Shown piece by piece: positions 10,285 to 48,626 of a DNA stretch of 64,000 bases. A model generated the notes under the pieces. The model saw nothing but the letters and a program-made list of their open reading frames with translations, was not told where the DNA came from and did no database searches. A program made the translations under genes and the position numbers. The DNA is taken from IMG/VR virus record IMGVR_UViG_3300022660_000072. The stretch is one strand, 5' to 3'. Position 1 is the stretch's first letter; every line of letters starts with the position of its first letter. Source of the DNA: an uncultured virus (IMG/VR IMGVR_UViG_3300022660_000072) (Duplodnaviria > Heunggongvirae > Uroviricota > Caudoviricetes).

Positions 10285-10529
10285 AAAAAGCCACTTTTAC
10301 CTCTGCGCATCACTCTGCGGAAAGTTTTAAGTGGCTCAAAAAAAGTAAGTTATAAAGTTGAATGGTGATTCGGTTGGAAGGGAATCGCAAGAAGTGGAAT
10401 CCTTACCAAAGCCGATATTTCGTCATTATTTTGTCTGTCTCTTTCATTATCATTACTTGTCTATGTAAAGGTCGCATGATGAGATTCTAAGTTTCGTCAT
10501 TGTTTTTTACCTCTGCGTTTCCCTCTGCA
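10285..10529. other. Putative attP: core about 10363-10377 resembling a tRNA 3' end, with arm-type repeats
   Basis: Minus strand reads ccaaccgaatcacca (CCA end); tandem ctctgc repeats at 10295-10319 and 10505-10529; adjacent to integrase 3' end. Confidence 0.6.
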
Positions 10530-12087: not shown

Positions 12088-13020
12088 CTAGTATCCCTTG
12101 GCTACATTGAGCAGGTGTTCCTTATATTTATTAAGGTCTGATGCTTTTGAATAGTCCATAGTGCTGCTTTCGCTTGCAGGAGGAAAGATTATCATCCCCT
12201 TGCCCTTGTATGCCCTGCATAGCCACTTGGACTGGTTGTCAAGGAACAGTGTCTCGTGTTCCTTATACTTCACAGAAAAGACCCTTGATGGCTCCGCAAA
12301 GTCGCTCAGTATGTGTCTTGCAACTTCGACCAATGACAGACCGTCTGAATTCTGTGTTGGTGATTCGAAGCCTGTCTCGGATGCAAGTATCTCCCTGCAT
12401 AGGCTTATGTTGTCTGTAGACTTGGCTACTCCTGCAGAATCAAGTATTAGTTCGATGAATCCGTCCGACATCTTAGTCACGTTCGATCTGTATGACTTGA
12501 TTATCTTGTCACGAAGCTCGGTCTCACGAATGTATCCTTGTATGGCTTCGTTGCTGAATCTGTCCTTGGAGAACATGTGCAGTTCTTCGATGACATCGTT
12601 TCCCATTTCAAGTAGGTTGAACTTAAGGAATGGTTCTTTGTCCATGATGTTCTGCTTTACTGTGTCAGAATAGAACCAATATTCGATGCCGTTTGTAATT
12701 ATGCCACACTTCGCCTCTGATGCTGCATAGTATTTCATGAGCTGTGGAGCATGTACAGCAAGGTTGCAAGTATGGTGCTTGCACTCTATGATTATTCGTA
12801 TTGATCCGTTGATAGATATTGCATAATCCACCTTGTCGCCACCTCTAGAAAGGTCGCAGTCCATTTCAGGTATCAGCTCATATGGGTTGAAAATGTCATA
12901 TCCAAGAGCAGACAGCATTGGCAGTATGAGTGCTGTTTTTGTAGCCTCCTCTGTTGTTATGGCATGGAGTGCATGAGTTGCTACATCCTTGATTTTTGCT
13001 ACCGATTCAAATAGATTCAT
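12088..13020 (-). CDS. HsdR N-terminal-like (PD-(D/E)xK) nuclease domain protein
   Basis: EEATK..LI.P.L..LGYD, KVDYAI, IIIECK, ITNG..Y.FY. Confidence 0.8.
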   Translation of the reverse strand: MNLFESVAKIKDVATHALHAITTEEATKTALILPMLSALGYDIFNPYELIPEMDCDLSRGGDKVDYAISINGSIRIIIECKHHTCNLAVHAPQLMKYYAASEAKCGIITNGIEYWFYSDTVKQNIMDKEPFLKFNLLEMGNDVIEELHMFSKDRFSNEAIQGYIRETELRDKIIKSYRSNVTKMSDGFIELILDSAGVAKSTDNISLCREILASETGFESPTQNSDGLSLVEVARHILSDFAEPSRVFSVKYKEHETLFLDNQSKWLCRAYKGKGMIIFPPASESSTMDYSKASDLNKYKEHLLNVAKGY

Positions 13021-14160: not shown

Positions 14161-16119
14161 ATGAAGGAAGTATTTTTAAGAAACATGACCATTGACAACT
14201 TCAAGGGTATAAGCCACTTTGAGGTTGACATTGATTGCCTGTTGACACAGATTCGTGGAAACAACGGCACGGGTAAGACCAGTGTGTATGATGCCTATCT
14301 ATGGCTTCTCACTGGCAAGGATTCTAAAGGTAGTGAATCGTTCAAGGTTCAGCCTGTCGATCAGAACAATGAGACTATTCCGAAGCTGATGACAACAGTT
14401 TCATGCAGATTCTCTGTTGATGGAGTAGAGACAGTATTCAAGAGGTGCTTGAGTCAGAAATGGTCAAAGCCAAAGGGTACTGATAAGGAAGTTCTCAAAG
14501 GCAATAGCACTGACTATTTCATAGATGATGTTCCTGTCACTGCAATAGCCTTCAACGCAAAGATAAAGGAATCATTCTGTGATGCAGACAAGCTTCGTAT
14601 GATTTCATCGGTCTTCCAGTTCTTTTCGTTGCCGGTAAAGGATGCAAGATCGCTATTGGTTCAGATGGCAGGAGAAATGCCGGACATCTTGACTGAGGAG
14701 GCATATCCAAGATTATTCAAGGACATCAAGGAAACAAAGTCGGTTGATGGTTCCAAGCAGAGAGCTCTGTTTGCCAGGAAAAGGGATGAGGAAGCAAGAA
14801 TCGGCATTCCTTTGAGGATTGACGAAAATGAGAGAAAGAGACCTACACATGATTTCGCTGCCCTTAAGTCGGAAGCTGAAAGGATTGAAAGGAGAATATC
14901 TGAAATTGATGGAGTTCTTCAAAGACATGCAGATGCCACTTTGTTTGATGCATGTGCAGACCTTAACAAGCAGTTGAACGAAATACGTAGTCAGATAGAG
15001 GACTGTGAAAGGTCATTCCGCAAGGAAAGGGAGGATGCCGTTTATCAGCACAAGTCGCAGATAGAAGCCATTGGAAGAAAGATTGGAGCATTCAGTGCTG
15101 ACATATCCTCTTTGGAAAGAAAGTCTCAGATGCTTGATATTGAGATTAACGAGTATCAGAAGAATCTTAAGGCATGTGGAGAGGAATGGACAAAGGTTAA
15201 TGCAAGTGAGTTCAAGGATACAGTTGATGCAGCCTGCCCTACTTGTGGCCGTCCGTTCGATGAAGATGTTGTTGCTGAAAGGAGAAATGACCTTATCAGA
15301 AGATTCAATGTAGAAAAGGTTGAAAGACTGAAAGAAGTAAGGGAAAAGGGCAACAAGATTTCTGAGGCATTGACCAAGGCTAAGGAACAGAAGAATGAAA
15401 TTGATGAGAAGGTGGTGTCTTTCAAGAAAAGCAGAGGAGAGGCGGTTGAAGAAGAAAGCAGAGCTGTTTTAAAGCTTGATTCAGTACCTACTATAGAAAA
15501 TCTCAAGGAAGCAAGCAGGGAGTATATGACACTCATTTCAAAGGAGGCTTCTGTAAAGGAGAAGATTTCCATTGAAAAGGATAAGTCGCAGAAGGCTTAC
15601 GATGATTCTGAGATTGAAAATGAAAAGCTCTCTCTCAAGGCAAGGTTGAAGGATGTTCTCAGGATGTTGGGTGAGGAGTCCAGGATCAAGGAGATTGAAG
15701 AAAGAAGGTCTCAGTTGGAGCAGGAGGCTGTAGAAGTAGCTGCAAGACTGGCAGAACACGATGCTTTACTGCACGAGATTCAGAGATATGGTAAGGAAAG
15801 AATCAACGCTGTAGAGGAGAAGGTATCCGGAATGTTCAGCCTTGTAAAGTTTCAGATGTACGAAAGGAATGTTACCAATGATGGAGAAAAGGAAATATGT
15901 GAGCCGTTGGTCAATGGTGTTCCTTACTCCGGCAATCTCAACTATGCAGCAAAAGTAAATGCTGGTATTGACGTTGTGAACGCAATTTCTAAATGGCTTG
16001 GCATTTCGATGCCAATGTTCATAGACAACAAGGAATCTGTTTTCGAAATCATTGACCCGATAGGTCAGATTATCACTTTGACTGCAGATGAAACTTGTGA
16101 AAAACTTGTTGTTATGTAG
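14161..16119 (+). CDS. SMC/Rad50-like ATPase
   Basis: NFKG, Walker A GNNGTGKT, long coiled coil with CPTCG zinc hook, MFIDNKES Walker B. Confidence 0.88.
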   Translation: MKEVFLRNMTIDNFKGISHFEVDIDCLLTQIRGNNGTGKTSVYDAYLWLLTGKDSKGSESFKVQPVDQNNETIPKLMTTVSCRFSVDGVETVFKRCLSQKWSKPKGTDKEVLKGNSTDYFIDDVPVTAIAFNAKIKESFCDADKLRMISSVFQFFSLPVKDARSLLVQMAGEMPDILTEEAYPRLFKDIKETKSVDGSKQRALFARKRDEEARIGIPLRIDENERKRPTHDFAALKSEAERIERRISEIDGVLQRHADATLFDACADLNKQLNEIRSQIEDCERSFRKEREDAVYQHKSQIEAIGRKIGAFSADISSLERKSQMLDIEINEYQKNLKACGEEWTKVNASEFKDTVDAACPTCGRPFDEDVVAERRNDLIRRFNVEKVERLKEVREKGNKISEALTKAKEQKNEIDEKVVSFKKSRGEAVEEESRAVLKLDSVPTIENLKEASREYMTLISKEASVKEKISIEKDKSQKAYDDSEIENEKLSLKARLKDVLRMLGEESRIKEIEERRSQLEQEAVEVAARLAEHDALLHEIQRYGKERINAVEEKVSGMFSLVKFQMYERNVTNDGEKEICEPLVNGVPYSGNLNYAAKVNAGIDVVNAISKWLGISMPMFIDNKESVFEIIDPIGQIITLTADETCEKLVVM

Positions 16120-18130: not shown

Positions 18131-19060
18131 ATGGCAAGAATAAGAAGCATAAAGCCTGAGTTTTGGGATGACGAGCATATAGCATCACTGCCTATGGAGT
18201 GTAGGCTGTTCTATATCGGTTGCTGGACATTCGCAGATGACCAGGGTGTCTTCAATGCCAATCCGTCTTTTCTCAAGTCAAGGATTTTCCCATACGATGA
18301 TGATCTGAAAGTTTCAGAAGTCAAGGCATGGTTGAAGAAGCTTGAGGAACTTAAGATGATTATTCCTTTCACGCACAGCAGAGATAACTATTATGTCGTA
18401 AGAACATTCGCAGACCATCAGGTTGTTGATAAAAGATACTTCAAGAGGGTGGTTCCGGAAGAGGTTGTAGATAAGGTTTTGGGCATAAAATCGAACTCTA
18501 CAGGAGACCACGTAGAGACCACTACGAGCACCCCACGTGGTCACGCAGGGAACTCGACGCCGGATAGGATAGGAGAGGATAGTAATAGTATTGTTATTGT
18601 TAATAATACGCACGCACACGTGCGCGAGGAACAACAACAAGAAGTTTATTACGAATGTATCTTTTTTAGGAATATCAAGAATCCTAGACAAGAAGCAGAA
18701 AGGTTCTTCGGCCACAACGAATCGCACAAGTGGACAGGTAAGAGTGGAAAGGTATGGTCGACAGTAGAGGAGAGATTAGGACTTGCAATGCAGTGGAAGC
18801 CGCAGGAGGCTGGAGACAGATGTTCTGCAGATTTCCTCAAGATGTGGAAGTCGGTGTATGATGCAGTGAAAAGGTCGCAGCCGGATACAGCCATGAAGAT
18901 GCTTGATGAAAAGGCAGACGGAGGATGGAGAGGAGGAACGCCAGTTGTTTATTGCAAGTCAGATGTTGCAGCTTTCCTAAAGCAGAACATGGATATATTG
19001 GCTCCTTTCATGAACAAGTGGAGCAGAGGAGTTCAGATATCATTTCAACCCCCATATTAG
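18131..19060 (+). CDS. Phage replication initiator (replisome organiser-like)
   Basis: MARIRSIKPEFW, RLFYIG.W.FADD.G wHTH N-terminus, low-complexity linker. Confidence 0.75.
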   Translation: MARIRSIKPEFWDDEHIASLPMECRLFYIGCWTFADDQGVFNANPSFLKSRIFPYDDDLKVSEVKAWLKKLEELKMIIPFTHSRDNYYVVRTFADHQVVDKRYFKRVVPEEVVDKVLGIKSNSTGDHVETTTSTPRGHAGNSTPDRIGEDSNSIVIVNNTHAHVREEQQQEVYYECIFFRNIKNPRQEAERFFGHNESHKWTGKSGKVWSTVEERLGLAMQWKPQEAGDRCSADFLKMWKSVYDAVKRSQPDTAMKMLDEKADGGWRGGTPVVYCKSDVAAFLKQNMDILAPFMNKWSRGVQISFQPPY

Positions 19061-19062
19061 AC

Positions 19063-19305
19063 ATGAAGCCGAAAGTGATAATGTGCAAGGTGACTATATC
19101 GAAGGAAGGTATAGAGGCATTGAAAAAAGTTATTAGAATGGCAGAAGCCCATATTTCGGATTGGCAGTTTAATGACATAGACGAAAAGATGGCAGTAAGA
19201 CTGGCAAAAAGAATAGTTAGGGATTATGCCAAAGTTGAGAAAATTGAAAAAGTAAGATTGAAAGAATATGAAAGAGAACAAAAAGATTCAGACAAAAAAG
19301 AATGA
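19063..19305 (+). CDS. Hypothetical protein
   Basis: ORF right after the initiator. Confidence 0.5.
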   Translation: MKPKVIMCKVTISKEGIEALKKVIRMAEAHISDWQFNDIDEKMAVRLAKRIVRDYAKVEKIEKVRLKEYEREQKDSDKKE

Positions 19306-31360: not shown

Positions 31361-33151
31361 ATGACAACTACTCCAATCATTATGACGAAGGAGTATTGGC
31401 AAAATAGTCAGCTCTCGATTGCCACATATTATGGTGGTCTTAAATTCAACGGAAAAGAGTATAAAATTGTGAATAAGCATGGCATTACTCTAGAAGAACT
31501 ATCTAATCCAATGTCGAAGTATTGGTCCGGAAATGGAGAATATGCCATTCCTCCAGGAGAGCCTGCCGACTTGGTTCAAGAAGACTGGCTCCCGGTGTAT
31601 AGAAGCTTAGGTAGAGAGAAGACATTTAAGTTGATAAAGAAGAATGTTCCTCTTTCTATTGCAAAGAAGCAAATCAAAACCAAAAAGTAATAGAATTATG
31701 AAAAGTAAGTTATTGAAGTTAAAGCAGATGATCTGCAATTCCTGGCCGTTCATTACAATGTATGCGGTTGGAGGTGTTTCTCTTTTTATTGGAGGTTATA
31801 GACACAGCCTTATTGAATCGTTGCTAGCATTAGCATATGTCCTTACTGCACTAGGATGGCACAAAGAGAAGAATAAGTCAATGACTATTGCTTCTATTGT
31901 GGACGGAGTGATGAAGAACAATGATGAACTCATAACTATCAACAAGGAGCTGTCCACAAAGAACCAGGAGCAGAGTAACCTTATAGGTGGTATTATTTCA
32001 GAGAACAAAGACCTAAAGCTAAAGTTGAAGAATGCTAAGATGGAAGCCTCTAGGTTGAGAAACAAGGGAGGAAAGAAAAATGAGTAAGATTCGTAAAAAT
32101 GTAGAGGTGGCAAGAAGTAACGCCAAACTGACAGACAGGTTCCCTTCTCTAAAGCAGCAGGCTCCCACAAAGATTACCATTAAGACTGAAAAGGATTTGC
32201 CTGTGACAAAATCTGGAATGTTGCAGAAATGTGAAGATTGTGCCCACTCCAATCCTACTTGTACATATTGTGAGTTTTATAAAAAGGCAATATTCCCATA
32301 TCAGTATGGCTGTTTCAACTTCATTACAGATGAGGATGAGCAAAAGAGACGTGCAGAATCAGCTGCAAAGCAAGCTGCAGAAATATCGCTTCAATGGCAG
32401 AAGCAGCAGAATGTTGAAGAACAGAAATGTAACTGGTTGTTAACCCTCATGATTGACATGATTGTAGGTTCGCAGATTCTTCTTGAAGACTTTGAAAGAA
32501 GGACGGATGCTATGTTCAAGAACAATCCATTTCCGGATGCCGAAGATGTAGCCAATCACAAGTCAGACAAGGACTGGATATTCAAACACAAGTATGCTTT
32601 CGCAAGTATCAAGAAGATATACGAAGGAATGAAGTCAAAGTTTGAAAAAGGATGCAGTACCATACGCACTACGTTTGAATCCACCATTCAGAAGCATATC
32701 GTAGCCATGTGTACTGATAAGGAAACGAAGCAGCTTGACGAAAAGATGTACACATCCATAGATGTCAATGCAGCTGAGTTTACTCGCCTCATGATGCTTG
32801 TGATGAATAAGGTTGTAGGAAGTGAAGGTAACTTTGAAAAAATAGTGGATTTCGTTGCACAGCTTGACGGACAGGATGTTTTCAGTCCACAGGATATATC
32901 CAAATTCAAGATAAAGTAATATGAGCAGATGTCATTACATATATACCGAGGACGGACTTAAGGTCTTTGTCCCAGGCTGTATGGGATGTGCTGTACATGG
33001 TCCTGGTAAGGCTTACTGCACTTGTGGAAGCAGACAATACAAGTCAGAAGAATCCAGGAGAAACAAGGAGTTGAAGAAGCAGCTCAATGAGACTGAGAAA
33101 GAGCTGGATCAAGCCTACAGGACCATAAGAAAACTAGTAAAGAAGAAATGA
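31361..33151 (+). CDS. Hypothetical genes (31361-31690, about 31698-32087 two-TM plus coiled coil, 32080-32919, 32921-33151)
   Basis: Contiguous ORFs; Cys clusters in the last two. Confidence 0.55.
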
Positions 33152-36812: not shown

Positions 36813-37133
36813 ATGGAATATTTGAATAGAATTCAGATTAGAGGAACAGTGGGAGCTGTAAGGCTCAGTGAAATTCACGGAACTAAGGTGGTTAACCTGT
36901 CGGTTGCTACAGAGTATCTTAAGCAGATGCCAGGAAGCTCTCCTGCATGTGAAGTCACATGGCACAATGTGGTTTGCTGGCAGAGCGAGAGCGAAGACAG
37001 CCTGGAAAGCATAGATAGGGGCACATCCGTGTATGTTGAAGGACGAATGAGATCGACTCAGTACACATCGGCTTCCGGTGAGAAGAAGAATTTTTACGAA
37101 ATAATAGCATCAAGGCTAAAGGTCGTAAAATAG
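36813..37133 (+). CDS. ssb: Single-stranded DNA-binding protein (no acidic tail)
   Basis: LNRI.IRG.VG, SVAT, TWHNVVCW, G..VYVEGR. Confidence 0.88.
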   Translation: MEYLNRIQIRGTVGAVRLSEIHGTKVVNLSVATEYLKQMPGSSPACEVTWHNVVCWQSESEDSLESIDRGTSVYVEGRMRSTQYTSASGEKKNFYEIIASRLKVVK

Positions 37134-37167
37134 AGATAACTGCTTGTTTTGAGCACAATTTGTTGCC

Positions 37168-37203
37168 AAAGTGTTGTAAATTGCAACACTTTGGCTATTT
37201 TTG
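37168..37203 (+). promoter_or_regulatory. Bacteroidetes promoter with palindromic operator
   Basis: aaagtgttgtaaattgcaacacttt followed by TATTTTTG. Confidence 0.65.
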
Positions 37204-37218
37204 TGCAAAAGTTAAGTT

Positions 37219-37860
37219 ATGAAGAAGATATTGGTGATAGCACCCCATGCAGATGACGAGGTGCTTGGAGTAGGAGGTTATCTTTTGCATGAAAGTCAAA
37301 AAGGTAACAGCATCTACATAATCTATGGTGCCATAGGTGGAGAAGACATCCGTCAGAATTCTAACACAAGGGAGTTGGAGGTGATGTCTGTCGTCCAAAA
37401 TCTCAAAGCAACCTACAAAGTTCTGTTCTACGGAAAAGATGCAGAGTTAGACACTGTCCCTAGTCGTTCGATTATAAGTGCGATAGACAAGGAAGTGGAT
37501 GAATATAGACCAGATGAGGTTTTCATTAACTGCACATCACACCACCAAGACCACAAGAAGTTGTACGAATGTGCAATGGCTTCAATGAGACAGAGGGAAG
37601 GTTATGTCCCTAAGATGGTCGCATTGTATGAGTATCCATGTCTTGAGCCAGGAGAAATAATTGACGGAGGTAGGTGGTATCACGATATAGGTGATGTCAT
37701 TGATGCTAAATGTGATTTGATGGAGAAGTACGAGAGTCAGATCAGAAAGGCTCCGTCTCCAATCAATGAAGAAGGCATCCGTTCCCTTGCTGCCATTAGA
37801 GGTAGAGAGTGTGGAGCTGATTACGCAGAATTGTTTTACATACAGAAGATGAAGTCATGA
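37219..37860 (+). CDS. PIG-L/LmbE family deacetylase
   Basis: IAPHADDEVLGVGG, RELE, HQDH, K...M..Y.SQ, YAE.F. Confidence 0.92.
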   Translation: MKKILVIAPHADDEVLGVGGYLLHESQKGNSIYIIYGAIGGEDIRQNSNTRELEVMSVVQNLKATYKVLFYGKDAELDTVPSRSIISAIDKEVDEYRPDEVFINCTSHHQDHKKLYECAMASMRQREGYVPKMVALYEYPCLEPGEIIDGGRWYHDIGDVIDAKCDLMEKYESQIRKAPSPINEEGIRSLAAIRGRECGADYAELFYIQKMKS

Positions 37861-38711
37861 AAAACTGGGTTGTATTTGAAGCTGGAAGCAGGGCAGGTCT
37901 TTCTGCACTGATGTTTTTTAGGCAATATAAGAAGCTTGCTAAATGTGACGATAATCTTTTTATGGTGGATGATGACAAGGTTTTCCATGCTACCAATAAT
38001 GAAAGATATGATTCTGTAAAGACATTGTGTGCTAGTGTTCTGATTCGTGAGTATCTAGGAGAATTTGTCGTCTTCCCTGCTGATGAACTTACAAGGCAGA
38101 GAGGATGTAAATATGGAGCAGGTGAGTGGTTTAATTGTGTCGGCCAGGAAATGTATGACAAGAGATTCGTTACAGCCATGCTTGAAAGTAGAGGAGTCTC
38201 TGTTCCTAAGACATTGATGGCAGATGAAGTTATTGTAAAGCCCAATACGATGTCTGCAGGAAGTAAGGGCATAATGAACCTTGATGACTATTGTGTACAG
38301 CAAAGGATTGACATCGCTCACGAATATGTTGTTGATATGTTTGTCGATCAAGACGGAGAAGTTGTGCAGTTATACCCAAGAGAGGTGAAACTGAGAGCAG
38401 GATACGATAGGTACATAAGGTTTTTGTTCGATGGTCATAAAGTGGCTAGGTTCGCACGTGATGTTGTGAATGCCGATGTGCTTGGAATGTTCAGAGGCCC
38501 ATGTCACATTCAGGTCGTTGAAGACCATAGCGGAAAGTTGTACTACATTGAGGGAAGCAAGAGGATTTCCGGAACATCGCTTGTAAACATACTTAGAGGC
38601 TACAATCCGTTCTGTCTGTTAAATGATGTTGAAATGTCAGTTAATGACTATGACGAAGGCTGGCATACATTCGAAGAATTACTCATAAAAGTAGAGGAGG
38701 TTGTGAAATGA
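37857..38711 (+). CDS. ATP-grasp fold ligase
   Basis: FPADE, DK, IVKP...SAGSKG, VQQ.I...EYVVD, IE...RISGT. Confidence 0.8.
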   Translation: MKNWVVFEAGSRAGLSALMFFRQYKKLAKCDDNLFMVDDDKVFHATNNERYDSVKTLCASVLIREYLGEFVVFPADELTRQRGCKYGAGEWFNCVGQEMYDKRFVTAMLESRGVSVPKTLMADEVIVKPNTMSAGSKGIMNLDDYCVQQRIDIAHEYVVDMFVDQDGEVVQLYPREVKLRAGYDRYIRFLFDGHKVARFARDVVNADVLGMFRGPCHIQVVEDHSGKLYYIEGSKRISGTSLVNILRGYNPFCLLNDVEMSVNDYDEGWHTFEELLIKVEEVVK

Positions 38712-39757
38712 CAAAGTTTGCAAACATACTAAGATACATAGTAGCTATAGTTCTTCCGGTGTCTTTGCTGATGCATCCGTTTGCAGGAATTTTGACCTGT
38801 TTAGGTGTTTTATGGATGAACAACTACTTGGATGATATCCTATTCTATCTGTCAAGCCTGGAAGTCCGTAATGAAAGCTTTACGCTTCCTAGGATAGTGT
38901 CTCCTGTAAATGGAATAGTCACACTTGTTGAGAGAGGGGTTTCTACCATGAATCTCAAGAAGCGTGATGCTATTGACTTCTCACGTGATAGCTTCGAATA
39001 TGATATTGTTGGACAGTTTGAGAGGCGTTGGAAAGCTTACGATCATGTTGCTGTGTACCTCAATAAGTTCAGCAAGCATATAGTGCTTAATCCAAGTAAG
39101 ATTGTACATATTTGGAAGCACTATTCCGATGGTAATCTTGAAATGGTATCCGGAGACAACCTTGTGTCAGATAATGTTGGAGAGTATATGAACAATGATG
39201 CTCTTGTGATTGAGTATCCGAACTTTCTGATGGTGCTGACTATGGATAAGTACATATCTGAGTACGTCACATTGGATGCAGACAAAGGAGTATGCTGTCA
39301 GATTAGGAGAGGTTCGCAGTGTGACTTCTATTTCAAGGAAGGTTCTTTCATATATCCCAAAGTTGGAGACTGTATAGATATTTATGACCCGCTGGTTCAC
39401 ATCAATACTGAAAGAATGTCATTTGATGTAAAGGATGAAGCAAGACGAGCTGTTAATATGTGTGTGGCGTATTCCGGAGGATACAATGGAATGGCTCTGG
39501 AGGCTCTTAAAAAGACATTGAGCACATTCAGATGCCTATGGCTTATGTGTCTTGTCTTAATCTGTCCGTTATTGTCATATCCAACACTATACCACACCCT
39601 CTTTTCGTATGTTGGATTCTTAAGCATTTATCTGTTCCTGTTTGTAAGGTCGTACCGTCATTTGATGTATTCGATGATGAATGTGTTCGGTCTGAAAGAA
39701 TGGATGGTCAACTCATACAAGTTCATCGCTAAAGCTAATAAGTTATGGAAGAAATGA
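38708..39757 (+). CDS. Phosphatidylserine decarboxylase-like membrane protein
   Basis: IVSPVNG (cf. SPADG), VAVYLNKFSKH (cf. IF.S..NVH), IRRGSQCD (cf. I.FGS.VD pyruvoyl site); TM segments at both ends. Confidence 0.65.
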   Translation: MTKFANILRYIVAIVLPVSLLMHPFAGILTCLGVLWMNNYLDDILFYLSSLEVRNESFTLPRIVSPVNGIVTLVERGVSTMNLKKRDAIDFSRDSFEYDIVGQFERRWKAYDHVAVYLNKFSKHIVLNPSKIVHIWKHYSDGNLEMVSGDNLVSDNVGEYMNNDALVIEYPNFLMVLTMDKYISEYVTLDADKGVCCQIRRGSQCDFYFKEGSFIYPKVGDCIDIYDPLVHINTERMSFDVKDEARRAVNMCVAYSGGYNGMALEALKKTLSTFRCLWLMCLVLICPLLSYPTLYHTLFSYVGFLSIYLFLFVRSYRHLMYSMMNVFGLKEWMVNSYKFIAKANKLWKK

Positions 39758-40371
39758 AGATAGTCTATAAGGACATAGACACCCTAAAGCCGGCAGAGTA
39801 CAATCCAAAGAAGTGTACTCCAAAAGAGGAGAAGGGCATAGAGGACAGTATCAAGAAGTTCGGATTCGTTGATCCGATAATCGTCAATATGCAAGAAGGT
39901 AGAGAGAATGTCATTGTCGGTGGTCATCAGAGATTGAGAGTAGCAAAGAAGCTTGGATACACCAAGCTGCCTTGTGTTGAAGTGTATTGCTCATATCCGG
40001 ATGAAGAAATGGAACTCAATGCCAGGTTGTCGAAGAATACAGCAAGCATAGACCATGACCTCCTTGCAAAGTACTTCAAAAAAGATATGCTGTTAGGCAT
40101 AGGCTTCAAAGAGGAGGAGCTTAAGGCATTCATGACTGAGTTTGAGGAGAAGTTCCACAAGGAGAGTAATGCCACTTGTGTGTATCCTCTAGTTCCTAAG
40201 TTCTCTGAGAAGTACGATGCAGTTATAATCGTATCGAAGAATAGTATTGATACAGCTTTCCTTGAGACAGTGCTAGGCATAGAGAAGTGTCAGTCTTACA
40301 AGAATTCAAGAACAGGAAAGGCTATGGTCATAGATGTAGACAAGTTCCGCAAACAATGGGAGGAGAAGTAG
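39745..40371 (+). CDS. ParB/Srx N-terminal domain protein
   Basis: LKPAEYNP, SIKKFGFVDPIIVN, IVGGHQRL. Confidence 0.88.
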   Translation: MEEMKIVYKDIDTLKPAEYNPKKCTPKEEKGIEDSIKKFGFVDPIIVNMQEGRENVIVGGHQRLRVAKKLGYTKLPCVEVYCSYPDEEMELNARLSKNTASIDHDLLAKYFKKDMLLGIGFKEEELKAFMTEFEEKFHKESNATCVYPLVPKFSEKYDAVIIVSKNSIDTAFLETVLGIEKCQSYKNSRTGKAMVIDVDKFRKQWEEK

Positions 40372-40372
40372 T

Positions 40373-41116
40373 ATGTCTGCTGTAGATATAAAGATTGTCA
40401 TTCCGTCAATGGGAAGGGCAGATAGAGTTCTCACAAAGAACGCCATTAGTAACGCAGTGCTGTGTGTACCTGAATCTGAGGAGTCTGCATATCGTGAGCA
40501 TAATCAAGGAATGGAGATATTGACACATCCCGATAGTCTTAAGGGTCTCACTCTCAAGAGGCAGTTCATATATGAGCATTTTAAAAATTCGTTCCAAATC
40601 GACGATGACATCAAACATCTTGGAAGATTGTATGTGGAGAAAGGAGAAGATGCAGTGCTTGATAAGGATGAAGCATACGACATCATTCAGTATATAGGCA
40701 ACTGTGCAAAGATGGCAGGATGCTTCCTGTTTGGAATCAGTAAGGAGTGCAATCCTCTTGCATATGATGAGAATCACCCAATCCACCTTACCGGAATACT
40801 TAATGGAGATATAGGTCTACTTGAAGGTTCTAAGCTGTTCTTCCATGAAATGGCAAAGGTGAGTGAAGACTACTGGATTTCTGCCTACAACGCCTATGTT
40901 CATAGATACTGTTGGATTGACAAGAGATTCAGTGCAGTTGGTCAGAAGACCTTTGGAAACACTGGAGGATGTGCCAACACAAGAACCAACAAGCAGGAGA
41001 TGGAGGATACTCTTTTTCTTCGCAGAATGTTTGGTGATGCCATAAGGCTGAAAGAGGATACGATGCTTGCAAAGAGAAAGTCTGAGTTCCAGAGAACCCT
41101 TGTCATTCCATACTAA
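40373..41116 (+). CDS. GT-A glycosyltransferase, TET-associated/GREB1-like
   Basis: IVIPSMGRA, E..AY, RQFI, QIDDDI, SED, TGG. Confidence 0.75.
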   Translation: MSAVDIKIVIPSMGRADRVLTKNAISNAVLCVPESEESAYREHNQGMEILTHPDSLKGLTLKRQFIYEHFKNSFQIDDDIKHLGRLYVEKGEDAVLDKDEAYDIIQYIGNCAKMAGCFLFGISKECNPLAYDENHPIHLTGILNGDIGLLEGSKLFFHEMAKVSEDYWISAYNAYVHRYCWIDKRFSAVGQKTFGNTGGCANTRTNKQEMEDTLFLRRMFGDAIRLKEDTMLAKRKSEFQRTLVIPY

Positions 41117-41195: not shown

Positions 41196-41828
41196 ATGGG
41201 AGATAGTTATCAGAGACTTACGAAGAAAGGTTATGACTTTTACGAAGTCGCTTCGGCTTTTCAGAAGTCCATAAGAAGGGGGCTTCTTGAAGATGCGATG
41301 TATTGGGGAATCGAGCTGTATGAAAGCAACTATGAGGAGTATGCTTGGAAGCGAATGATTATCATGGCCAGTGAGGATGTAGGTCTAGGCGAGCCAAGTT
41401 GTGTGGTTCAGATTATGGCATTGAAGCAGTCGTTTGACTACTTGACAATGCGAAAAGATATTGGAGCCAAGAAGCTGCCTTTTACTCACGCAATAGCAGT
41501 TCTTGTCAATAGTAGGAAGTCAAGATTCATTGATCATGCAATCACTGTTTATTGGCAACAGAACAGAGAGGAAATGAAGGAGATTCCAAATTGGGCTTTC
41601 GACATGCATACCAGGAGAGGAAAGGCTATGGGTAGAGGGCTTGATTATTTCTACAAGGAAAGTTGCAAGATAACCAATGCCAACAAGGTAAAAGGTGAGG
41701 AGGAGCTTGAAAGAATTGCCTGGAAGATTGACAATGTCTACGGAATTGAGAGGGAGGATCTGCCGGCAACAGACAAAGCTTACAGAAATGACGAGAGGAA
41801 GAATGATGGTTCTCCAACACTATTTTGA
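41196..41828 (+). CDS. Stand-alone RarA/MgsA C-terminal-like domain protein
   Basis: YEVASAFQKSIR, AMYW, RMIIMASEDVGL; no Walker A. Confidence 0.75.
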   Translation: MGDSYQRLTKKGYDFYEVASAFQKSIRRGLLEDAMYWGIELYESNYEEYAWKRMIIMASEDVGLGEPSCVVQIMALKQSFDYLTMRKDIGAKKLPFTHAIAVLVNSRKSRFIDHAITVYWQQNREEMKEIPNWAFDMHTRRGKAMGRGLDYFYKESCKITNANKVKGEEELERIAWKIDNVYGIEREDLPATDKAYRNDERKNDGSPTLF

Positions 41829-41916: not shown

Positions 41917-42003
41917 GGAAGGATGGGTGAGTGGCTTAAACCACCTCTCTGCTAAGGAGGCGAACATGTGAATGTTCCGAGAGTTCGAATCTCTCTCCTT
42001 CCG
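41917..42003 (+). tRNA. tRNA-Ser(GCT)
   Basis: Acceptor ggaagga/tccttcc, anticodon arm cctct-ctGCTaa-ggagg, long variable arm, T arm gagag-ttcgaat-ctctc, G discriminator. Confidence 0.93.
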
Positions 42004-42195
42004 CAATAGGACACCTGCTGGATAGCGGTGAAAGCTCAGAGAGCCTTCCTGTTGGGAGTATTGCATTGGGTTGCACTACTCTCTCAAAAACCCTCCTGTG
42101 AAGGACGGATAGTTATTAGTTTTGGGTTAGATTCAACATTGGGTTATATGCGGTTGGCGCCGCTTATAACCCCAAAGTAATACGAGAGCATTTTT

Positions 42196-42567
42196 ATGAA
42201 AGAGGTAGTTGAAAAATCTGCTGTCAAACTTACAAAGAAGCAGAAAAAGTTTATTGAACTCTACGGAGGTCCTGGATTGTGCAACATATCGCACACTTGT
42301 GAGAAGGTCGGTATGTCAAGAAGAAACTTCTATTACTGGATGGAAAGAAATCCCAAGTTCAGAGAGGCGATAGAAGATGCTGAGGAGAGCAACATAGACA
42401 TGGTTGAGACAAAGTTGAAGCAGGCAATCCTCAATAACGACATGACGGCAATCATTTTCTTCTTGAAGACCAAGGGCAAGAAGAGAGGATATGTTGAGCA
42501 GATCGAACAGAAGGTTGAAGTCAATCCATTCCAGCAGTTGATGATGTCTCTGCCGGATGATGTCTAA
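42196..42567 (+). CDS. Terminase small subunit (putative)
   Basis: HTH (NIS.TC.KVG.SR..FY.W), TAIIFFLKTKGKKRGYVE. Confidence 0.75.
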   Translation: MKEVVEKSAVKLTKKQKKFIELYGGPGLCNISHTCEKVGMSRRNFYYWMERNPKFREAIEDAEESNIDMVETKLKQAILNNDMTAIIFFLKTKGKKRGYVEQIEQKVEVNPFQQLMMSLPDDV

Positions 42568-42579
42568 ATAAATTTGGTT

Positions 42580-42726
42580 ATGGAAAATGTTATTAGTGTA
42601 GTAGGTGCTATCATTGTAGCATCAGTAATCGGTGCTTTTATGCCATTTGAGTCACCGATAGAGATTAGCTTGCCAAAGGCTGATGTCCTTCAAAGGGTGT
42701 CCACTCCAAAATTTACCAGAATATAG
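42580..42726 (+). CDS. Small 48 aa hydrophobic protein (not in ORF track)
   Basis: MENVISVVGAIIVASVIGAFMPFESPIE...; fills the TerS-TerL gap. Confidence 0.45.
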   Translation: MENVISVVGAIIVASVIGAFMPFESPIEISLPKADVLQRVSTPKFTRI

Positions 42727-42733
42727 AATATTT

Positions 42734-44281
42734 GTGAACGAAAGAGAACTAGAGAAAGCCGCCAAGTACATGTTGGCATGGAGAGAAGACTGGAACCGCT
42801 TTGTTCGTGATGTCCTTAAGGCTCGTCTTGATTCTGAACAGCAGGCTATCATCAATAGTGTGCAAGAGAATAAGATGACAGCAGTGGCATCTGGAACAGC
42901 AAGGGGAAAGGACTTCGTTTCAGCTTGTGCTTGTCTCTCGTTCTTTTATCTCACTCCACGTTGGGATGCCAATGGTAGGTTAGTTGCCAACACGAAGGTT
43001 GCCATGACGGCACCTACAGGAAGACAGGTGCACAACATCATGACCCCGGAAGTAAGAAGACTGTTCAGAAACGCAGGATTCCTTCCCGGAAGATTGGTGG
43101 CAGATGATATTCGTACAGACTATGAGGAGTGGTTCTTGACTGGCTTCAAGGCTGGAGACGATGCAACAGAGGCTTGGTCTGGATTCCATGCAGTAAACAC
43201 TATGTTCTCCATTACGGAGGCTTCCGGTATTTCGGAGATAGTGTACAATGCCATAGAGGGTAACTTGCAGGGTAATTCAAGAATACTGCTTGTGTTCAAC
43301 CCCAATGTTACTACAGGATATGCTGCAAGAGCTATGAAGTCTGAACGATTCAGAAAGTTCAGACTTTCTTCGCTGAATGCAGAGAATGTTGTTTCAAAGA
43401 AGATAGTCATTCCTGGCCAGGTTGACTACGATTGGGTAAAGGATAAGGTTGAGAACTGGACCATTCCTATACAAGAGAGGGATTTCAATGAAGGAGAAGG
43501 AGACTTTTTGTGGGAAGGTGCTTTCTACAGACCGAACGACTTGTTTAGGATCAAGGTGCTTGGTATGTTTCCTAGAGTGTCTTCTGACATCCTCATTCCA
43601 TACGAATGGGTGGAGCTTGCAAACAGAAGATGGCTTGAATTCGTAGAGGAGCACGGATATGACTACATTCCTCCAAAAGAACCTTTGAGACTTGGTGTCG
43701 ATGTGGCAGGTATGGGACGAGACAGCTCTAACCTTGCTCACAGATACGGAAATTTCGTAAGGAAGATAGATTCTTATCAGTCTGCAGGAAAGGCAGACCA
43801 CATGCATGTTGCAGGTATGATAATCCAAGGAATCCATGAATCTGTTGCAAAAGGGGCATTTGCAATGATAGATACCATTGGTGAAGGTGCTGGAGTATTC
43901 TCTAGACTTGAGGAACTTGACCACAAGTGGGCTATCTCATGCAAGAATAGTGAAGGTGCAAAAGAACTGACTGATGTTACCGGACAGTACACGTTTGCCA
44001 ACATGAGGGCTTACCTGCATTGGTGCACAAGAGACTGGCTGGACCCAAGAAACGGACATAATGCAATGCTTCCTCCAGATGATATGTTGGCACAAGAGTT
44101 GACAGAACCTAAGTGGAAGTTTCAGAGTAATGGTTCTATCATCATAGAGCCGAAAGAGGACATACAGGCAAGATTGGGAAGGTCTCCCGATAGGATGGAT
44201 GCCTTGAACAACACGTTCTATCCTCACATCCCGGATAATAATGTTCTTAGTCAGAGCGACTTGGTAAGGATGTTTGGTTAG
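42734..44281 (+). CDS. terL: Terminase large subunit
   Basis: SGTARGKD Walker A, TAPT..Q, ITEASG Walker B, LGVDVAG nuclease, SPDRMDAL; start GTG 42734 or ATG 42683. Confidence 0.92.
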   Translation: MNERELEKAAKYMLAWREDWNRFVRDVLKARLDSEQQAIINSVQENKMTAVASGTARGKDFVSACACLSFFYLTPRWDANGRLVANTKVAMTAPTGRQVHNIMTPEVRRLFRNAGFLPGRLVADDIRTDYEEWFLTGFKAGDDATEAWSGFHAVNTMFSITEASGISEIVYNAIEGNLQGNSRILLVFNPNVTTGYAARAMKSERFRKFRLSSLNAENVVSKKIVIPGQVDYDWVKDKVENWTIPIQERDFNEGEGDFLWEGAFYRPNDLFRIKVLGMFPRVSSDILIPYEWVELANRRWLEFVEEHGYDYIPPKEPLRLGVDVAGMGRDSSNLAHRYGNFVRKIDSYQSAGKADHMHVAGMIIQGIHESVAKGAFAMIDTIGEGAGVFSRLEELDHKWAISCKNSEGAKELTDVTGQYTFANMRAYLHWCTRDWLDPRNGHNAMLPPDDMLAQELTEPKWKFQSNGSIIIEPKEDIQARLGRSPDRMDALNNTFYPHIPDNNVLSQSDLVRMFG

Positions 44282-45779: not shown

Positions 45780-47501
45780 ATGGCAAAGGTCGATTACACA
45801 TATCAGAGCAATGCTCATATTCAGAGGGTCGCCAAGTATCTGCAGATGCTTGAGCGATTCTTTGATGATGCCACTTCTGAATTCTGTAAGTTGTTCGGCA
45901 AGGCAAAATACGACGATTCTAGCCAGTTTTTCTTCGAAGACTATCCAACCCTCAAGAAGAAGGCAGATAGTGTCGTAAACAGCCTATCTTCGTCCATATA
46001 CGATGTGATTCTCACTGGAACCTCTGCCGAGTGGAAGAAATCCAACGAAATTACAGACCAAATGGTCAGAGACTTGTTCAAAAGCAGGGGTGTTAATATA
46101 GATGCCATAAAGAATTCGGATGTTGTTGATCTGTTCAATAATCACGATAAGGCTCTTGAAGCTTTTCAGAAAAGAAAAATCAAAGGATTGAGCCTGTCAG
46201 ACAAGGTGTGGAATATGGCAGAGTACCACCGCCTTGAAACTCAGTTGGCTTTGTCAATCGAAAGAGGAGAATCTGCGGCAGAACTTGCTAGGAAAGTTAA
46301 GAAGTGTCTCAAGGAGCCGGATAAGTTATTTCGTAGAGTTCGTGACAAGTACGGAGAATTGAAGCTGTCAAAGAATGCAAAGTCTTATCATCCCGGAGCA
46401 GGAGCATATCGAAGCAGTGTGAGAAATGCTCAAAGACTTGCAAGGACTGAAATCAATATGGCATATCATAGTGCTGAAATGCAGAGATACCAAGACCTTG
46501 ATTTCATAGTAGGTTTTGAGGTGAAGAGAAGTACACATCCTTATCATTGCGACATATGTGAGTCACACAAGGGAAAGTACCCAAAGGATTTCTTTTTTAC
46601 ACCTTGGCACCCGAATTGTCGCTGTTACGTAGTTCCTATCCTCAATACCCAGGAGGAGTTCGACAAGCAGAGTGATTCCATATTACGTGGTAAGCAATAT
46701 GCAAGAAAGAGCGTAAACACTGTTACTGCACCGCCCGAAGGCTTCAATCAATGGATATTCGACAACAAGGCAAGAATCCTCAGAGCAAAGAAGATAGGTA
46801 CGTTGCCATACTACATGAAAGACAATAGTGTCTACATCAATAGAGCTTTGTATCCACCTAAGCCAAAGGTTGTCAAGTCTATTGAGGAGAGAATGAAGGA
46901 GACTGACTGGAGGACAGTGCAGGAGATGAATGATATTATGTTCCCAGTAGCTAGTAAGGCTTGGCTTGATTCAGATGCTGATATGAGAAAGGCAGCTTAT
47001 GAATATACTTGGGATGAGGCTCCATATAACAGGCCAATGAGAAAGGGAGAGCCTGATACAAAGCAAATCGAGTTGCTTACGGAATACATTGACAAAAATA
47101 CCATTCCGGAGGATGTTTGGGTTAGGCGAGGTGTTGATGCATGGGCAAACATGACCGGCATTGATTTGACAGGAGCAAGTGACAAGTTGCTAGATAGTCT
47201 TGTTGGAAAAGAGCTTACAGATAAGGCATTCGTAAGCTGTGGAGTTACTAAGGGTAGAGGATTCAGCAGATCAGTAGATTTTCAGATATTTGTTCCAAAG
47301 GGTACAAAAGGTGCATATTGTGACCCTTTTTCTGCATTTGGATGTAATGATAGATTGTCTTGGGATGGCAAGACTGCACAACGACAGATAAGCAAAGAAG
47401 CAGAATTGTTATTGCAGAGAGACCTAAAGTATAAGGTTACGTCAGCAAAAATGAATGATAGCGGAGTTATTGAGATAATTTGTTATATAATTGAAAATTA
47501 A
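45780..47501 (+). CDS. MuF/SPP1 gp7-like minor head protein fused to a VIP2-like ADP-ribosyltransferase
   Basis: RLARTEINMAY, CDIC, WHPNCRC (MuF); YT...YN..MR, VRRG, FVSC, VPKGTKGAY, EAELLL (R-S-ExE ART). Confidence 0.85.
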   Translation: MAKVDYTYQSNAHIQRVAKYLQMLERFFDDATSEFCKLFGKAKYDDSSQFFFEDYPTLKKKADSVVNSLSSSIYDVILTGTSAEWKKSNEITDQMVRDLFKSRGVNIDAIKNSDVVDLFNNHDKALEAFQKRKIKGLSLSDKVWNMAEYHRLETQLALSIERGESAAELARKVKKCLKEPDKLFRRVRDKYGELKLSKNAKSYHPGAGAYRSSVRNAQRLARTEINMAYHSAEMQRYQDLDFIVGFEVKRSTHPYHCDICESHKGKYPKDFFFTPWHPNCRCYVVPILNTQEEFDKQSDSILRGKQYARKSVNTVTAPPEGFNQWIFDNKARILRAKKIGTLPYYMKDNSVYINRALYPPKPKVVKSIEERMKETDWRTVQEMNDIMFPVASKAWLDSDADMRKAAYEYTWDEAPYNRPMRKGEPDTKQIELLTEYIDKNTIPEDVWVRRGVDAWANMTGIDLTGASDKLLDSLVGKELTDKAFVSCGVTKGRGFSRSVDFQIFVPKGTKGAYCDPFSAFGCNDRLSWDGKTAQRQISKEAELLLQRDLKYKVTSAKMNDSGVIEIICYIIEN

Positions 47502-47858: not shown

Positions 47859-48626
47859 ATGTTGGGTGCAATTATAGGTGATGTTGTCGGCTCAAGGTTT
47901 GAGTTCGACAATATTTTTACACAGCAGTTCGAGATATTTCACTCGGAGTGCGATTTCACAGATGATACCATTTGTACGATAGCTGTGGCAGATGCCATTC
48001 TTTGTGGTAAAGATTACGGCCAGTCCATAGCTAAGTGGTGCAGTAAGTACCCTCACCCTATGGGAGGCTATGGTGCAAGGTTCGCAGGATGGGTAAGGTC
48101 GAAGGATCACAATCCATACAACAGCTTCGGCAATGGCTCTGCCATGAGAGTTTCTGCCATAGGATTCTATTACGATGACTATGAAGAAGTCAAGAGACAG
48201 GCAAAGATGTCTGCAGAATGTTCTCATAACCATGAAGAAGGCATCAAAGGTGCTGTTGCAGTGGCAAGTGCAATATGGTTTGCAAGACATATCTCCGGTG
48301 CAAAGCGCAGTGCAGTTAATAGCATAGCTGAAAAGTATTATCCAGGCTGTTTGACAGCAGACTATAAGAAAGGTGTGTTCGATGAGACTTGTCAAGGTAC
48401 TGTTCCGTTGTGCTTCAAGATAATTTCTGAGTCAGATAGCTTTGAAGAAGCCATAAGAAAAGCTGTAGCTCATGGTGGTGACACGGATACCATAGCAGCT
48501 ATTGTTGGTGGAATAGCAGAAGCAGTGTGGGGGATTCCTCTATGGATGAGGTTAGAAGTAAAAAAATACCTTCCACCAGAAATGCTTGTGATTATAGATC
48601 AGTTCTACTTTGCTATAGACGATTAG
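47859..48626 (+). CDS. ADP-ribosylglycohydrolase (DraG/ARH family)
   Basis: GAIIGD..GS, TDDT, SFGNGSAMR, SHNH, GGDTDT. Confidence 0.95.
   Translation: MLGAIIGDVVGSRFEFDNIFTQQFEIFHSECDFTDDTICTIAVADAILCGKDYGQSIAKWCSKYPHPMGGYGARFAGWVRSKDHNPYNSFGNGSAMRVSAIGFYYDDYEEVKRQAKMSAECSHNHEEGIKGAVAVASAIWFARHISGAKRSAVNSIAEKYYPGCLTADYKKGVFDETCQGTVPLCFKIISESDSFEEAIRKAVAHGGDTDTIAAIVGGIAEAVWGIPLWMRLEVKKYLPPEMLVIIDQFYFAIDD

Follow-up and report, generated by a model that had tools for sequence, protein, structure and literature searches.

A modular, probably glycan-tailoring cassette with a divergent phosphatidylserine decarboxylase relative in a Bacteroidales-type phage, possibly directed at phage DNA

Introduction

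Why does a temperate phage of the Bacteroidales type carry, just ahead of its terminase genes, a row of genes for what look like a sugar deacetylase, a ligase, a relative of phosphatidylserine decarboxylase (PSD), a ParB-like protein, and a glycosyltransferase, and on what molecule do their products act? We addressed this question for the uncultured virus record IMGVR_UViG_3300022660_000072 (IMG/VR; Caudoviricetes), whose whole stretch of 64,000 nucleotides is called the window here. An initial annotation, made from the sequence alone, had described the five genes as an operon for an undescribed DNA-hypermodification or lipid-remodeling pathway. The reading that we favor, at about an even chance, is that the locus is a modular phage glycan-tailoring cassette in which the glycosyltransferase is held by a ParB-like adaptor and which acts most probably on the DNA of the phage itself. 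With either target, phage glyco-cassettes have taken up a relative of PSD, in every case next to an ATP-grasp ligase, an arrangement not described in the literature searched.

A six-gene cassette with a variable center

Six co-directional genes lie between the SSB gene and the gene for the small terminase subunit (terS), in between the replication and packaging genes (Table 1). The first five are taken to be translationally coupled because their reading frames overlap or abut (in order, overlaps of 4, 4, and 13 nt and then a gap of 1 nt), in agreement with the five coupled genes shortly upstream of terminase that had been annotated. All five family calls for these genes stand: by Pfam for the PIG-L, ParB_N, and TAGT proteins, by AlphaFold2 (AF2) and Foldseek for the ATP-grasp protein, and by homology through intermediates for the PSD-like protein, here called g3. 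The extent of the set had been drawn too short, however, and missed an MgsA_C-like gene, which follows the TAGT gene after an 80-nt gap, and a tRNA-Ser. The MgsA_C-like gene is the sixth member of the conserved core. That the tRNA belongs to the system is doubtful, because viral locus L001 leaves no room for it (MgsA_C gene ends at 10977, terS starts at 10981).

Table 1. Positions of the cassette genes and of landmark features in the window
Feature	Position	Strand	Size	Basis or remark
Tyrosine integrase	10487-11800			Arm-DNA-bind_5 and SAM_5 domains
SSB gene	36813-37133			upstream of the cassette
Hairpin/palindrome	37165-37195		14-bp stem, 3-nt loop	followed by TATTTTTG
PIG-L/LmbE-family de-N-acetylase	37219-37860	+	213 aa	Pfam PF02585, 9.6e-14, 52.4 bits (cut-off 28.2); phrog_11796
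ATP-grasp carboxylate-amine ligase	37857-38711	+	284 aa	AF2 fold and Foldseek
g3, divergent PSD-family protein	38708-39757	+	349 aa	indirect homology and motifs
ParB-like adaptor, ParB_N plus conserved C-terminal domain	39745-40371	+	208 aa	Pfam PF02195, 1e-8, 35.5 bits (cut-off 26.3); phrog_620, phrog_498
TAGT-family GT-A glycosyltransferase	40373-41116	+	247 aa	Pfam PF20691, 8.6e-16, 58.9 bits (cut-off 27.5); phrog_842
MgsA/RarA C-terminal-domain (MgsA_C-like) protein, without ATPase core	41196-41828	+	210 aa	Pfam PF12002, 7.8e-13
tRNA-Ser (GCT)	41917-42004	+		ARAGORN; between the MgsA_C-like gene and terS
Small terminase subunit, terS	42196-42567	+		context, not pathway member
Large terminase subunit, terL	42683-44281	+		context, not pathway member

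The full six-gene order recurs at 37 to 80% identity on one viral contig (L001 = L003 = L032) and at 31 to 74% identity on another (L042); a further viral contig (L043) begins inside g3. Conservation of the cluster at 31 to 80% identity in other viral contigs is far beyond chance, and the synteny on which the initial annotation had made its proposal depend is thereby borne out. Scanning viral contigs with a TAGT alignment yielded 25 loci, in 14 of which PIG-L, ParB, TAGT, and MgsA_C genes occur together. The ParB gene stands immediately 5' of the TAGT gene in 20 of the 25, usually with terS next. The slot between PIG-L and ParB is variable: it holds ATP-grasp plus g3 in two complete loci and one truncated locus, a gene of 229 to 247 aa in 10 loci (WbqC in all five scanned), and nothing in 6 loci, 5 of which have a PylC-like ATP-grasp gene after MgsA_C. 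The literature searched offered no useful lead on what WbqC does.

A scan with an ATP-grasp alignment recovered more phage cassettes, with PIG-L, ATP-grasp, ParB, TAGT, a 330-aa form of the MgsA_C-like protein, and a pyridoxal phosphate (PLP)-dependent decarboxylase of the Orn/DAP type; the larger ones add UDP-galactopyranose mutase and two further ATP-grasps. The 330-aa form (L002, L004, L016-L020) had no Pfam match, and the protein atlas gave unnamed clusters and only an 11% MgsA_C label for it. The PLP decarboxylase occurs without a PSD-like gene in L002, L016, L017, L018, and L020, and this replacement of g3 in sister cassettes is the strongest argument that g3 acts as a decarboxylase in the pathway. 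In addition, a profile of short, RGSQ-type PSD-like proteins (see below) led to four distant viral loci, in all of which an ATP-grasp gene directly follows the PSD-like gene, with PIG-L nearby in two, ParB-like and MgsA_C-like genes in one each, and replicative helicases in two. Such modular variation fits the order of glycosyltransferase, deacetylase, ligase, and decarboxylase that had been put forward for the window.

Three side observations concern these related loci. In the cultured Vibrio phage V-YDF132 (L076, 56790-62785), the replication module contains PIG-L, a weak WbqC-like gene, three hypotheticals, a 513-aa glycosyltransferase, and a ParB-family gene annotated as "nucleoid occlusion protein"; this phage is a testable stand-in for the core system. 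The Vibrio phages vB_VpS_PG28 and VH2_2019 likewise have PIG-L, WbqC-like, glycosyltransferase, and ParB-like genes, and all three phages are without a PSD-like gene. L004 (1626-3434, minus strand), and likewise L005, carries a phage GmrSD-family type IV restriction gene (PF03235, 2.7e-34) a few kb upstream of the glyco-cassette. In L064 (1371-4325), an SNF2-type helicase is split by an intein with a LAGLIDADG endonuclease, beside a PSD-like/ATP-grasp/ParB/PIG-L module.

A divergent member of the PSD family

The family of g3 could not be read off directly. It matched no Pfam family up to an E value of 0.1, and searches of the PDB returned nothing relevant by sequence and only chance matches by profile (E of at least 0.8). 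The AF2 model (predicted local distance difference test [pLDDT] score, 76.5) has a beta domain with a helical hairpin on its N-terminal side and a bundle of helices on its C-terminal side. Its best Foldseek match, to the PSD-family decarboxylase PsiD, is weak (E 0.044), and VIA alignments with EIIA-Glc (Z 7.1), Escherichia coli PSD (Z 6.2), and PsiD (Z 5.4) all fall inside the tool's noise range. The VIA alignment with E. coli PSD pairs model residues 45-201 with chain residues 66-252 (133 aligned; rmsd 3.4) and ends just before the GS pair. An hhalign comparison of the g3 family with five Bacteroidales PSDs covered 161 columns at E 0.0044, with a probability of just 7.9%, in a register that pairs SPVNG with SSVDG, FSKH with FNVH, and RRGSQCD with KFGSRVD.

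The decisive result came from a g3 profile search of 1.84 billion proteins. It found 49 proteins, among which, beneath the g3 family itself, were proteins of ~220 aa with E values down to 1.3e-13. When 18 distant matches were scanned, 16 carried the Pfam domain PS_Dcarbxylase (PF02666), 15 of them above the cut-off, and the ~220-aa proteins have RGSQxD and MDKYV motifs in common with g3. Because its profile reaches proteins with this domain, g3 is, as judged by homology, a divergent PSD-family member with an extra C-terminal membrane domain and an Asn in place of the "DG" Asp. The PSD assignment of the gene at 38708 therefore holds through profile intermediates, and the structural scores for a PSD fold are weak.

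The architecture of g3 comprises the N-terminal helical hairpin, the beta domain with SPVNG, H124, and RGSQCD (containing G202-S203), and the C-terminal membrane domain at ~242-349. Hydrophobic helices at ~4-38 and ~270-316 in the AF2 model and hydropathy profile agree with the transmembrane helices annotated at both ends. In an alignment of 23 sequences, the motif I199-x-R201-G-S-Q-C-D206 is invariant, as are SPxxG, H113, and H124; G202, S203, and H124 align with the GS and His motifs of PSD. Like the short Bacteroidales and archaeal PSDs (PF02666), g3 has N-terminal membrane helices, a hybrid-motif beta domain, a His motif, and a G-S-x-x-D cleavage motif. It differs from PSD in lacking a direct Pfam match, in the Asn, in the extra domain of ~110 aa, and in its context, which is phage glyco-genes and not phospholipid synthesis. 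Its substrate surely differs from that of PSD.

The partner proteins and a predicted ParB-glycosyltransferase contact

PIG-L enzymes have metal-binding motifs of the AHxDD and HxxH types. In the cassette PIG-L, residues H10, D12, D13, and H112 do not vary among 16 homologues, and D111 hardly does. The protein is 50 to 63% identical to phage and chromosomal Bacteroidales copies alike (50 to 58% to chromosomal ones). The ATP-grasp protein, with at least 257 homologues, fell below the Pfam cut-off (ATP-grasp_4, 16.3 bits versus 27) and gave only chance matches in a PDB sequence search; its AF2 model (pLDDT 88.7) has the three-domain ATP-grasp fold, with Foldseek matches to RizA, PylC, and PurK (E 4e-11 to 1e-9; probability, 1.00). 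The TAGT protein carries a DxD motif, D77-D78-D79, that is invariant in 20 sequences, and its phrog_842 annotation reads "beta-glucosyl-HMC-alpha-glucosyltransferase," the T-even enzyme.

A chromosome-segregation ParB has a central helix-turn-helix (HTH) domain that binds parS and a GERRxR CTP motif. The ParB-like protein does not belong to this class: ParB_N is its sole Pfam domain, with no HTH Pfam match, the motif reads GGHQR in the alignment, and the C-terminal domain is different. In models of the complex with TAGT, the median score was 0.79 (runs of 0.79, 0.84, and 0.75) versus 0.11 for the best control, with at least 95% of contacts common to the runs and a pLDDT of at least 82 for the partners. 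The predicted interface lies at residues 131-197 of ParB, in the C-terminal domain, and at residues 99-116, 171-179, and 210-226 of TAGT. Of the cases used to calibrate the tool, 116 of 157 solved complexes and 2 of 215 mismatched pairs reached this mark, counts that hold only roughly here because our own alignments served as input. The ParB C-terminal domain is thus predicted to dock on the TAGT glycosyltransferase, the figure being the model's confidence and not a measurement.

The deacetylase-ligase pair in Bacteroidales chromosomes

The tailoring pair of PIG-L and ATP-grasp is common to phage cassettes and cellular loci. Among 26 genome loci, all from Bacteroidales metagenome-assembled genomes, PIG-L lies immediately upstream of ATP-grasp in 23, and only 4 are phage-type cassettes. 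One chromosomal group adjoins thioredoxin-like and GT2 genes. Within this group, a PLP decarboxylase follows ATP-grasp in L015 and L030, with a called PIG-L open reading frame (ORF) in L015 only. The pair is therefore shared with cellular glycan or lipid loci, and its chromosomal form (L006-L015 and L021-L031) looks like an uncharacterized cellular pathway.

A proposed pathway and its most likely target

We propose that the TAGT GT-A enzyme, bound through the ParB C-terminal domain as predicted, would put an N-acetyl-hexosamine (HexNAc) on the acceptor and that PIG-L would then take off the acetyl group to expose the sugar amine. The ATP-grasp ligase would acylate this amine with an amino acid whose alpha-amino and alpha-carboxyl groups stay free. 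It may be Glu or Asp linked by the side chain, ending as an amide of GABA or beta-alanine in keeping with the BtrJ/BtrK logic of butirosin, or else a diamino-dicarboxylate, for instance, diaminopimelate (DAP). Membrane-anchored g3 would strip the alpha-carboxylate, presumably with a pyruvoyl group formed by self-cleavage at G202-S203, and leave a terminal primary amine. The MgsA_C-like protein may be an additional DNA- or replisome-associated partner. The result would be a sugar adduct with a cationic charge, able to block restriction and akin to known aminated thymidine hypermodifications. In an alternative order, the decarboxylase would first turn a free amino acid into an amine for the ligase to attach; PsiD acts on free tryptophan. 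The ligation and decarboxylation of serine suggested in the initial annotation are unlikely, because serine joined through its carboxylate has none left to lose and Schiff-base decarboxylases of both the pyruvoyl and the PLP type need a free alpha-amine.

A DNA target is most likely in view of the constant phage-specific partners, the ParB-like and MgsA_C-like proteins, which both belong to DNA-metabolism families. According to PMC13229309, glycosyltransferases, ParBs, and terminases are the commonest neighbors of phage 5mYOX (thymine/5mC dioxygenase) genes (31%, 27%, and 19%, respectively), as the recurrence of ParB and glycosyltransferase in terminase-linked modification loci assumed in the annotation would have it, and a phage ParB of such clusters activates its cognate DNA-modifying enzyme. 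In T6-like phages, TAGT is thought to add the second glucose to glucosyl-hydroxymethylcytosine (hmC) DNA (PMC13390438). Amino acids carried by phage DNA lose their carboxylate while on the polymer, through PLP enzymes (ViI gp226 and M6 gp52) that require a free alpha-amine (PMC8989533).

What would prepare the DNA for the sugar is less evident. As annotated, the window contains no TET/JBP or hydroxymethylase gene: among its 89 ORFs scanned against Pfam, no TET/JBP or thymidylate-synthase-like gene was above the cut-off, and no family of the 5-hydroxymethyldeoxyuridine (5-hmdU) route (P-loop DNA kinase 5-HMUDK or aGPT-Pplase/AADT) was present. The window was also compared with related virus records, of which the closest is G001, the nearest record being a 62.3-kb virus contig rated 100% complete. 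No co-conserved candidate for an entry enzyme emerged between the window and the complete records G003 and G005, which share with it, outside the cassette, only holin, a VRR-NUC nuclease, dUTPase, and terS. The hosts are gut anaerobes, to which an O2-dependent dioxygenase would offer little, and its lack is presumably unsurprising for that reason. A thymidylate-synthase-like ORF at 18925-19305 was rejected as spurious because it is sub-threshold (15.6 bits in the window and 12.9 in G001; cut-off, 24.3), absent from G002 to G005, and overlaps other ORFs.

Several observations weigh against the phage's DNA as the target or against the proposed chemistry. Tet_JBP (PF12851) was found in none of five related virus records (completeness of 90% or more in three), although control genomes were silent as well, and Thymidylat_synt (PF00303) gave only the one 12.9-bit sub-threshold match in these records. 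The cassette does not adjoin terminase in G003 and G005. Searching 50,697 phage records by tblastn with the g3 and ATP-grasp proteins gave no match, so there is no cultured phage with relatives of either and no chemistry known; TAGT gave one partial match to cultured phage records. The protein g3 is an integral membrane protein, and the textbook substrate of its family is a phospholipid head group. Moreover, the Asp of the xPxDG motif, which is the Asp of the PSD triad, corresponds to N68 in 22 of 23 g3-family sequences and to Glu in the other one, and short RGSQ-type relatives mostly retain the Asp. Because of this Asn, self-cleavage of g3 is not assured; the GS pair in RGSQCD that had been singled out as the cleavage site is invariant, but the catalytic Asp is replaced. 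Finally, the remaining genome loci have PIG-L and ATP-grasp without ParB, TAGT, or MgsA_C, and another chromosomal group adjoins GlsA/GlsB-like (glycine-lipid) acyltransferases, a DXD glycosyltransferase, GT4 genes, and a MatE-like flippase.

These last points bear on a membrane or envelope target, the principal alternative to DNA and one already raised in the initial annotation, which we consider unlikely but which deserves weighing. Here the HexNAc would sit on a lipid or lipid-linked glycan (glycolipid, lipopolysaccharide, or capsule precursor), and the head group would be remodeled at the cytoplasmic face. The prophage could in this way alter the surface of its host so as, for instance, to mask receptors or exclude superinfecting phages. 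The membrane helices at both ends of g3 and its homology to lipid-acting PSD suit this idea, as does the N-terminal hydrophobic helix in short PSD-like proteins of other phages. So do the chromosomal pairs near GT2/GT4, flippase, and acyltransferase genes, the founding PIG-L enzyme, which deacetylates GlcNAc-phosphatidylinositol (Pfam description), and the temperate nature of the phage (integrase). It is at odds with the constant ParB-like and MgsA_C-like partners from DNA metabolism and the predicted binding of the glycosyltransferase to ParB. The cassette is also co-directional amid replication and packaging genes and not a moron with its own terminator, the decarboxylase of sister cassettes is a PLP enzyme matching Pfam families of soluble decarboxylases, and the modules of L063 and L064 sit among DnaB/SNF2 helicase genes. 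If this target were the true one, the cassette would represent a new phage-driven surface remodeling in Bacteroidales and a hint at the role of the chromosomal pair.

Less probable again is a soluble small molecule, in which a GlcNAc glycoside would be deacetylated, aminoacylated, and decarboxylated to give a metabolite or a donor for later transfer. The order of enzymes (glycosyltransferase, PIG-L deacetylase, and ligase) mirrors that of BshA/B/C and MshA/B/C, the PIG-L of cultured Vibrio phages is annotated as a BshB-type deacetylase, one chromosomal group lies beside thioredoxin-like genes, and the neighbors UDP-galactopyranose mutase and DegT aminotransferase work on nucleotide sugars. Against this, the glycosyltransferase is a DNA-type GT-A (TAGT) paired with ParB and not a GT4, the ligase is an ATP-grasp and not of the BshC/MshC type, and the constant ParB-like and MgsA_C-like partners would be left unexplained. 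We think it improbable, to a slightly greater degree, that two unrelated modules merely adjoin, a DNA-linked one (ParB, TAGT, and MgsA_C) and a captured host glycan or lipid module (PIG-L, ATP-grasp, and PSD-like). PIG-L and ATP-grasp do stand alone in chromosomes, and ParB and TAGT occur without PIG-L in L054 and L055; however, PIG-L accompanies ParB, TAGT, and MgsA_C in the 14 of 25 loci noted above, which span 51 to 80% TAGT identity, ParB lies between the PSD-like gene and TAGT with overlapping reading frames, and the association recurs in very distant phages (L064). The animal protein GREB1 is presumably a TAGT-family member. Described as having a glycosyltransferase domain, it O-GlcNAcylates a protein (PMC7968844), and this counts against a DNA target. 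The least probable of these alternatives is nonetheless that TAGT O-glycosylates a phage or host protein, as GREB1 does estrogen receptor alpha, with the sugar tailored afterward. The cassette adjoins packaging and head genes, but no candidate acceptor was identified, the characterized phage TAGT member works on DNA, and ParB and MgsA_C suggest DNA.

Returning to the favored DNA target, the cassette would belong to a gut-phage family of sugar-plus-amino-acid hypermodifications built from swappable parts, namely, a deacetylase, ligases of the ATP-grasp or WbqC kind, and decarboxylases of the PLP or pyruvoyl kind. None of the known base-preparing enzymes would take part, which poses a testable question on DNA glycosylation in anaerobes. 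The family would also provide new enzymes for DNA chemistry and new factors by which gut phages evade restriction and CRISPR. A bolder proposal, which we offer tentatively and regard as rather doubtful, is that phages infecting strictly anaerobic gut Bacteroidales glycosylate DNA without dioxygenase or hydroxymethylase entry, a ParB-tethered TAGT acting on an otherwise-prepared base or site and a membrane pyruvoyl decarboxylase on the DNA-borne sugar-amino-acid conjugate. If true, DNA glycosylation would have a new kind of entry step, and the decarboxylase would be the first pyruvoyl enzyme to act on a nucleic-acid adduct.

Relation to known systems

The backbone of ParB, DNA-type glycosyltransferase, and terminase is an already described kind of phage DNA-modification cluster (PMC13229309; 10.1101/2023.12.21.572611). 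In 5mYOX (TET/JBP)-ParB-glycosyltransferase-terminase clusters (these two papers and PMC8256090), a short ParB-like protein without a recognizable DNA-binding domain likewise stands by a DNA-type glycosyltransferase upstream of terminase; ParB is the protein partner of the modifying enzyme, and sugar-tailoring genes are often near. The cassette differs in having no detected 5mYOX, C5-methyltransferase, or hydroxymethylase, in that the predicted partner of ParB is the glycosyltransferase itself, and in adding a PIG-L deacetylase, an ATP-grasp ligase, and a PSD-family decarboxylase. The terms "deacetylase," "PIG-L," and "ATP-grasp" do not occur in the available text of the Pyle preprint (10.1101/2023.12.21.572611; supplements not covered), nor do "deacetylase" and "ATP-grasp" in that of PMC13229309 (supplements, i.e., Dataset S10, not covered). 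The claim that no characterized pathway has this combination therefore holds for the tailoring enzymes but not for the backbone. New here are the PSD-family decarboxylase with its fixed ATP-grasp pairing, the PLP replacement in sister cassettes, the predicted ParB-glycosyltransferase contact, and the chromosomal PIG-L and ATP-grasp link; no description of any of these four was found in the literature searched, which did not cover the supplements of PMC13229309 and the Pyle paper.

In the ViI and M6 thymidine hypermodifications, as in our proposal, an amino acid is first attached to the polymer and there loses its carboxylate to give a primary amine, and gene sets vary combinatorially (PMC8989533). 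Those pathways start from 5-hmdU via a DNA kinase and AADT, neither of which surfaced in the Pfam scans here, and their decarboxylase is PLP dependent, whereas that of the cassette is of the PSD family (pyruvoyl type); the word "pyruvoyl" occurs 0 times in PMC8989533. The cassette would instead attach its amino acid to the amine of a sugar, by an amide bond that the ATP-grasp enzyme makes. The T2/T6 beta-glucosyl-HMC-alpha-glucosyltransferase shares the Pfam family and DxD motif of the cassette enzyme and works on phage DNA, but it extends glucose on 5-hmC made before replication, and this phage has no hmC pathway. In bacillithiol and mycothiol synthesis (BshA/B/C and MshA/B/C), a GlcNAc glycoside is deacetylated by a PIG-L enzyme, and the sugar amine undergoes ATP-dependent aminoacylation; for the side chain of butirosin, the ATP-grasp enzyme BtrJ carries out the ligation, and the PLP enzyme BtrK then decarboxylates the gamma-linked glutamate. 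The chemical logic is the same, with other glycosyltransferase and ligase families, soluble products, and no ParB or MgsA_C, a likeness in mechanism and not in membership.

Other features of the window

By Pfam and PHROG annotation, the window derives from a temperate Bacteroidales-type phage with integrase, PcfJ/PcfK, RecT, a replication initiator, SSB, terS/terL, and an SPP1-type portal. The hairpin upstream of PIG-L, which had been taken for an operator-bearing promoter, is indeed a unique element, occurring once in the window; it may just as well terminate transcription of the SSB gene before it as serve the cassette as an operator or promoter. A role of the palindrome as a common operator or parS is doubtful, given its single copy and a comparable one upstream of PIG-L in only one of nine related loci (L035). 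Short contigs with 90 to 99% identity to parts of the cassette and terL/portal occur in three gut metatranscriptome libraries from one study, but these contigs were chosen with the cassette as the query, may reflect DNA carry-over, and are uninformative on lysogenic versus lytic expression. An ORF at 32080-32919 (279 aa) and other unknown ORFs of the window had no Pfam match up to an E value of 10.

Several further genes were observed. A Mu-F-like minor head protein (45780-47501) has a C-terminal ADP-ribosyltransferase (ART) domain (PF03496, 3.4e-15) and is followed by an ADP-ribosylglycohydrolase gene (PF03747, 1.9e-33; 47859-48626); the two could be an injected ART and its own antidote. Adjoining the integrase gene is one for an HSDR_N-domain protein (12088-13020, minus strand), and a 652-aa AAA_15/SMC_N ATPase (14161-16119, plus strand) is encoded where the early region begins; both could be prophage-borne defense genes. 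Downstream of the holin and amidase genes, a 145-aa protein (4954-5391) matches the Acb2/Tad1 hairpin domain (PF24729, 3.4e-7) and would be a candidate sponge for cyclic nucleotides that counters CBASS or Thoeris.

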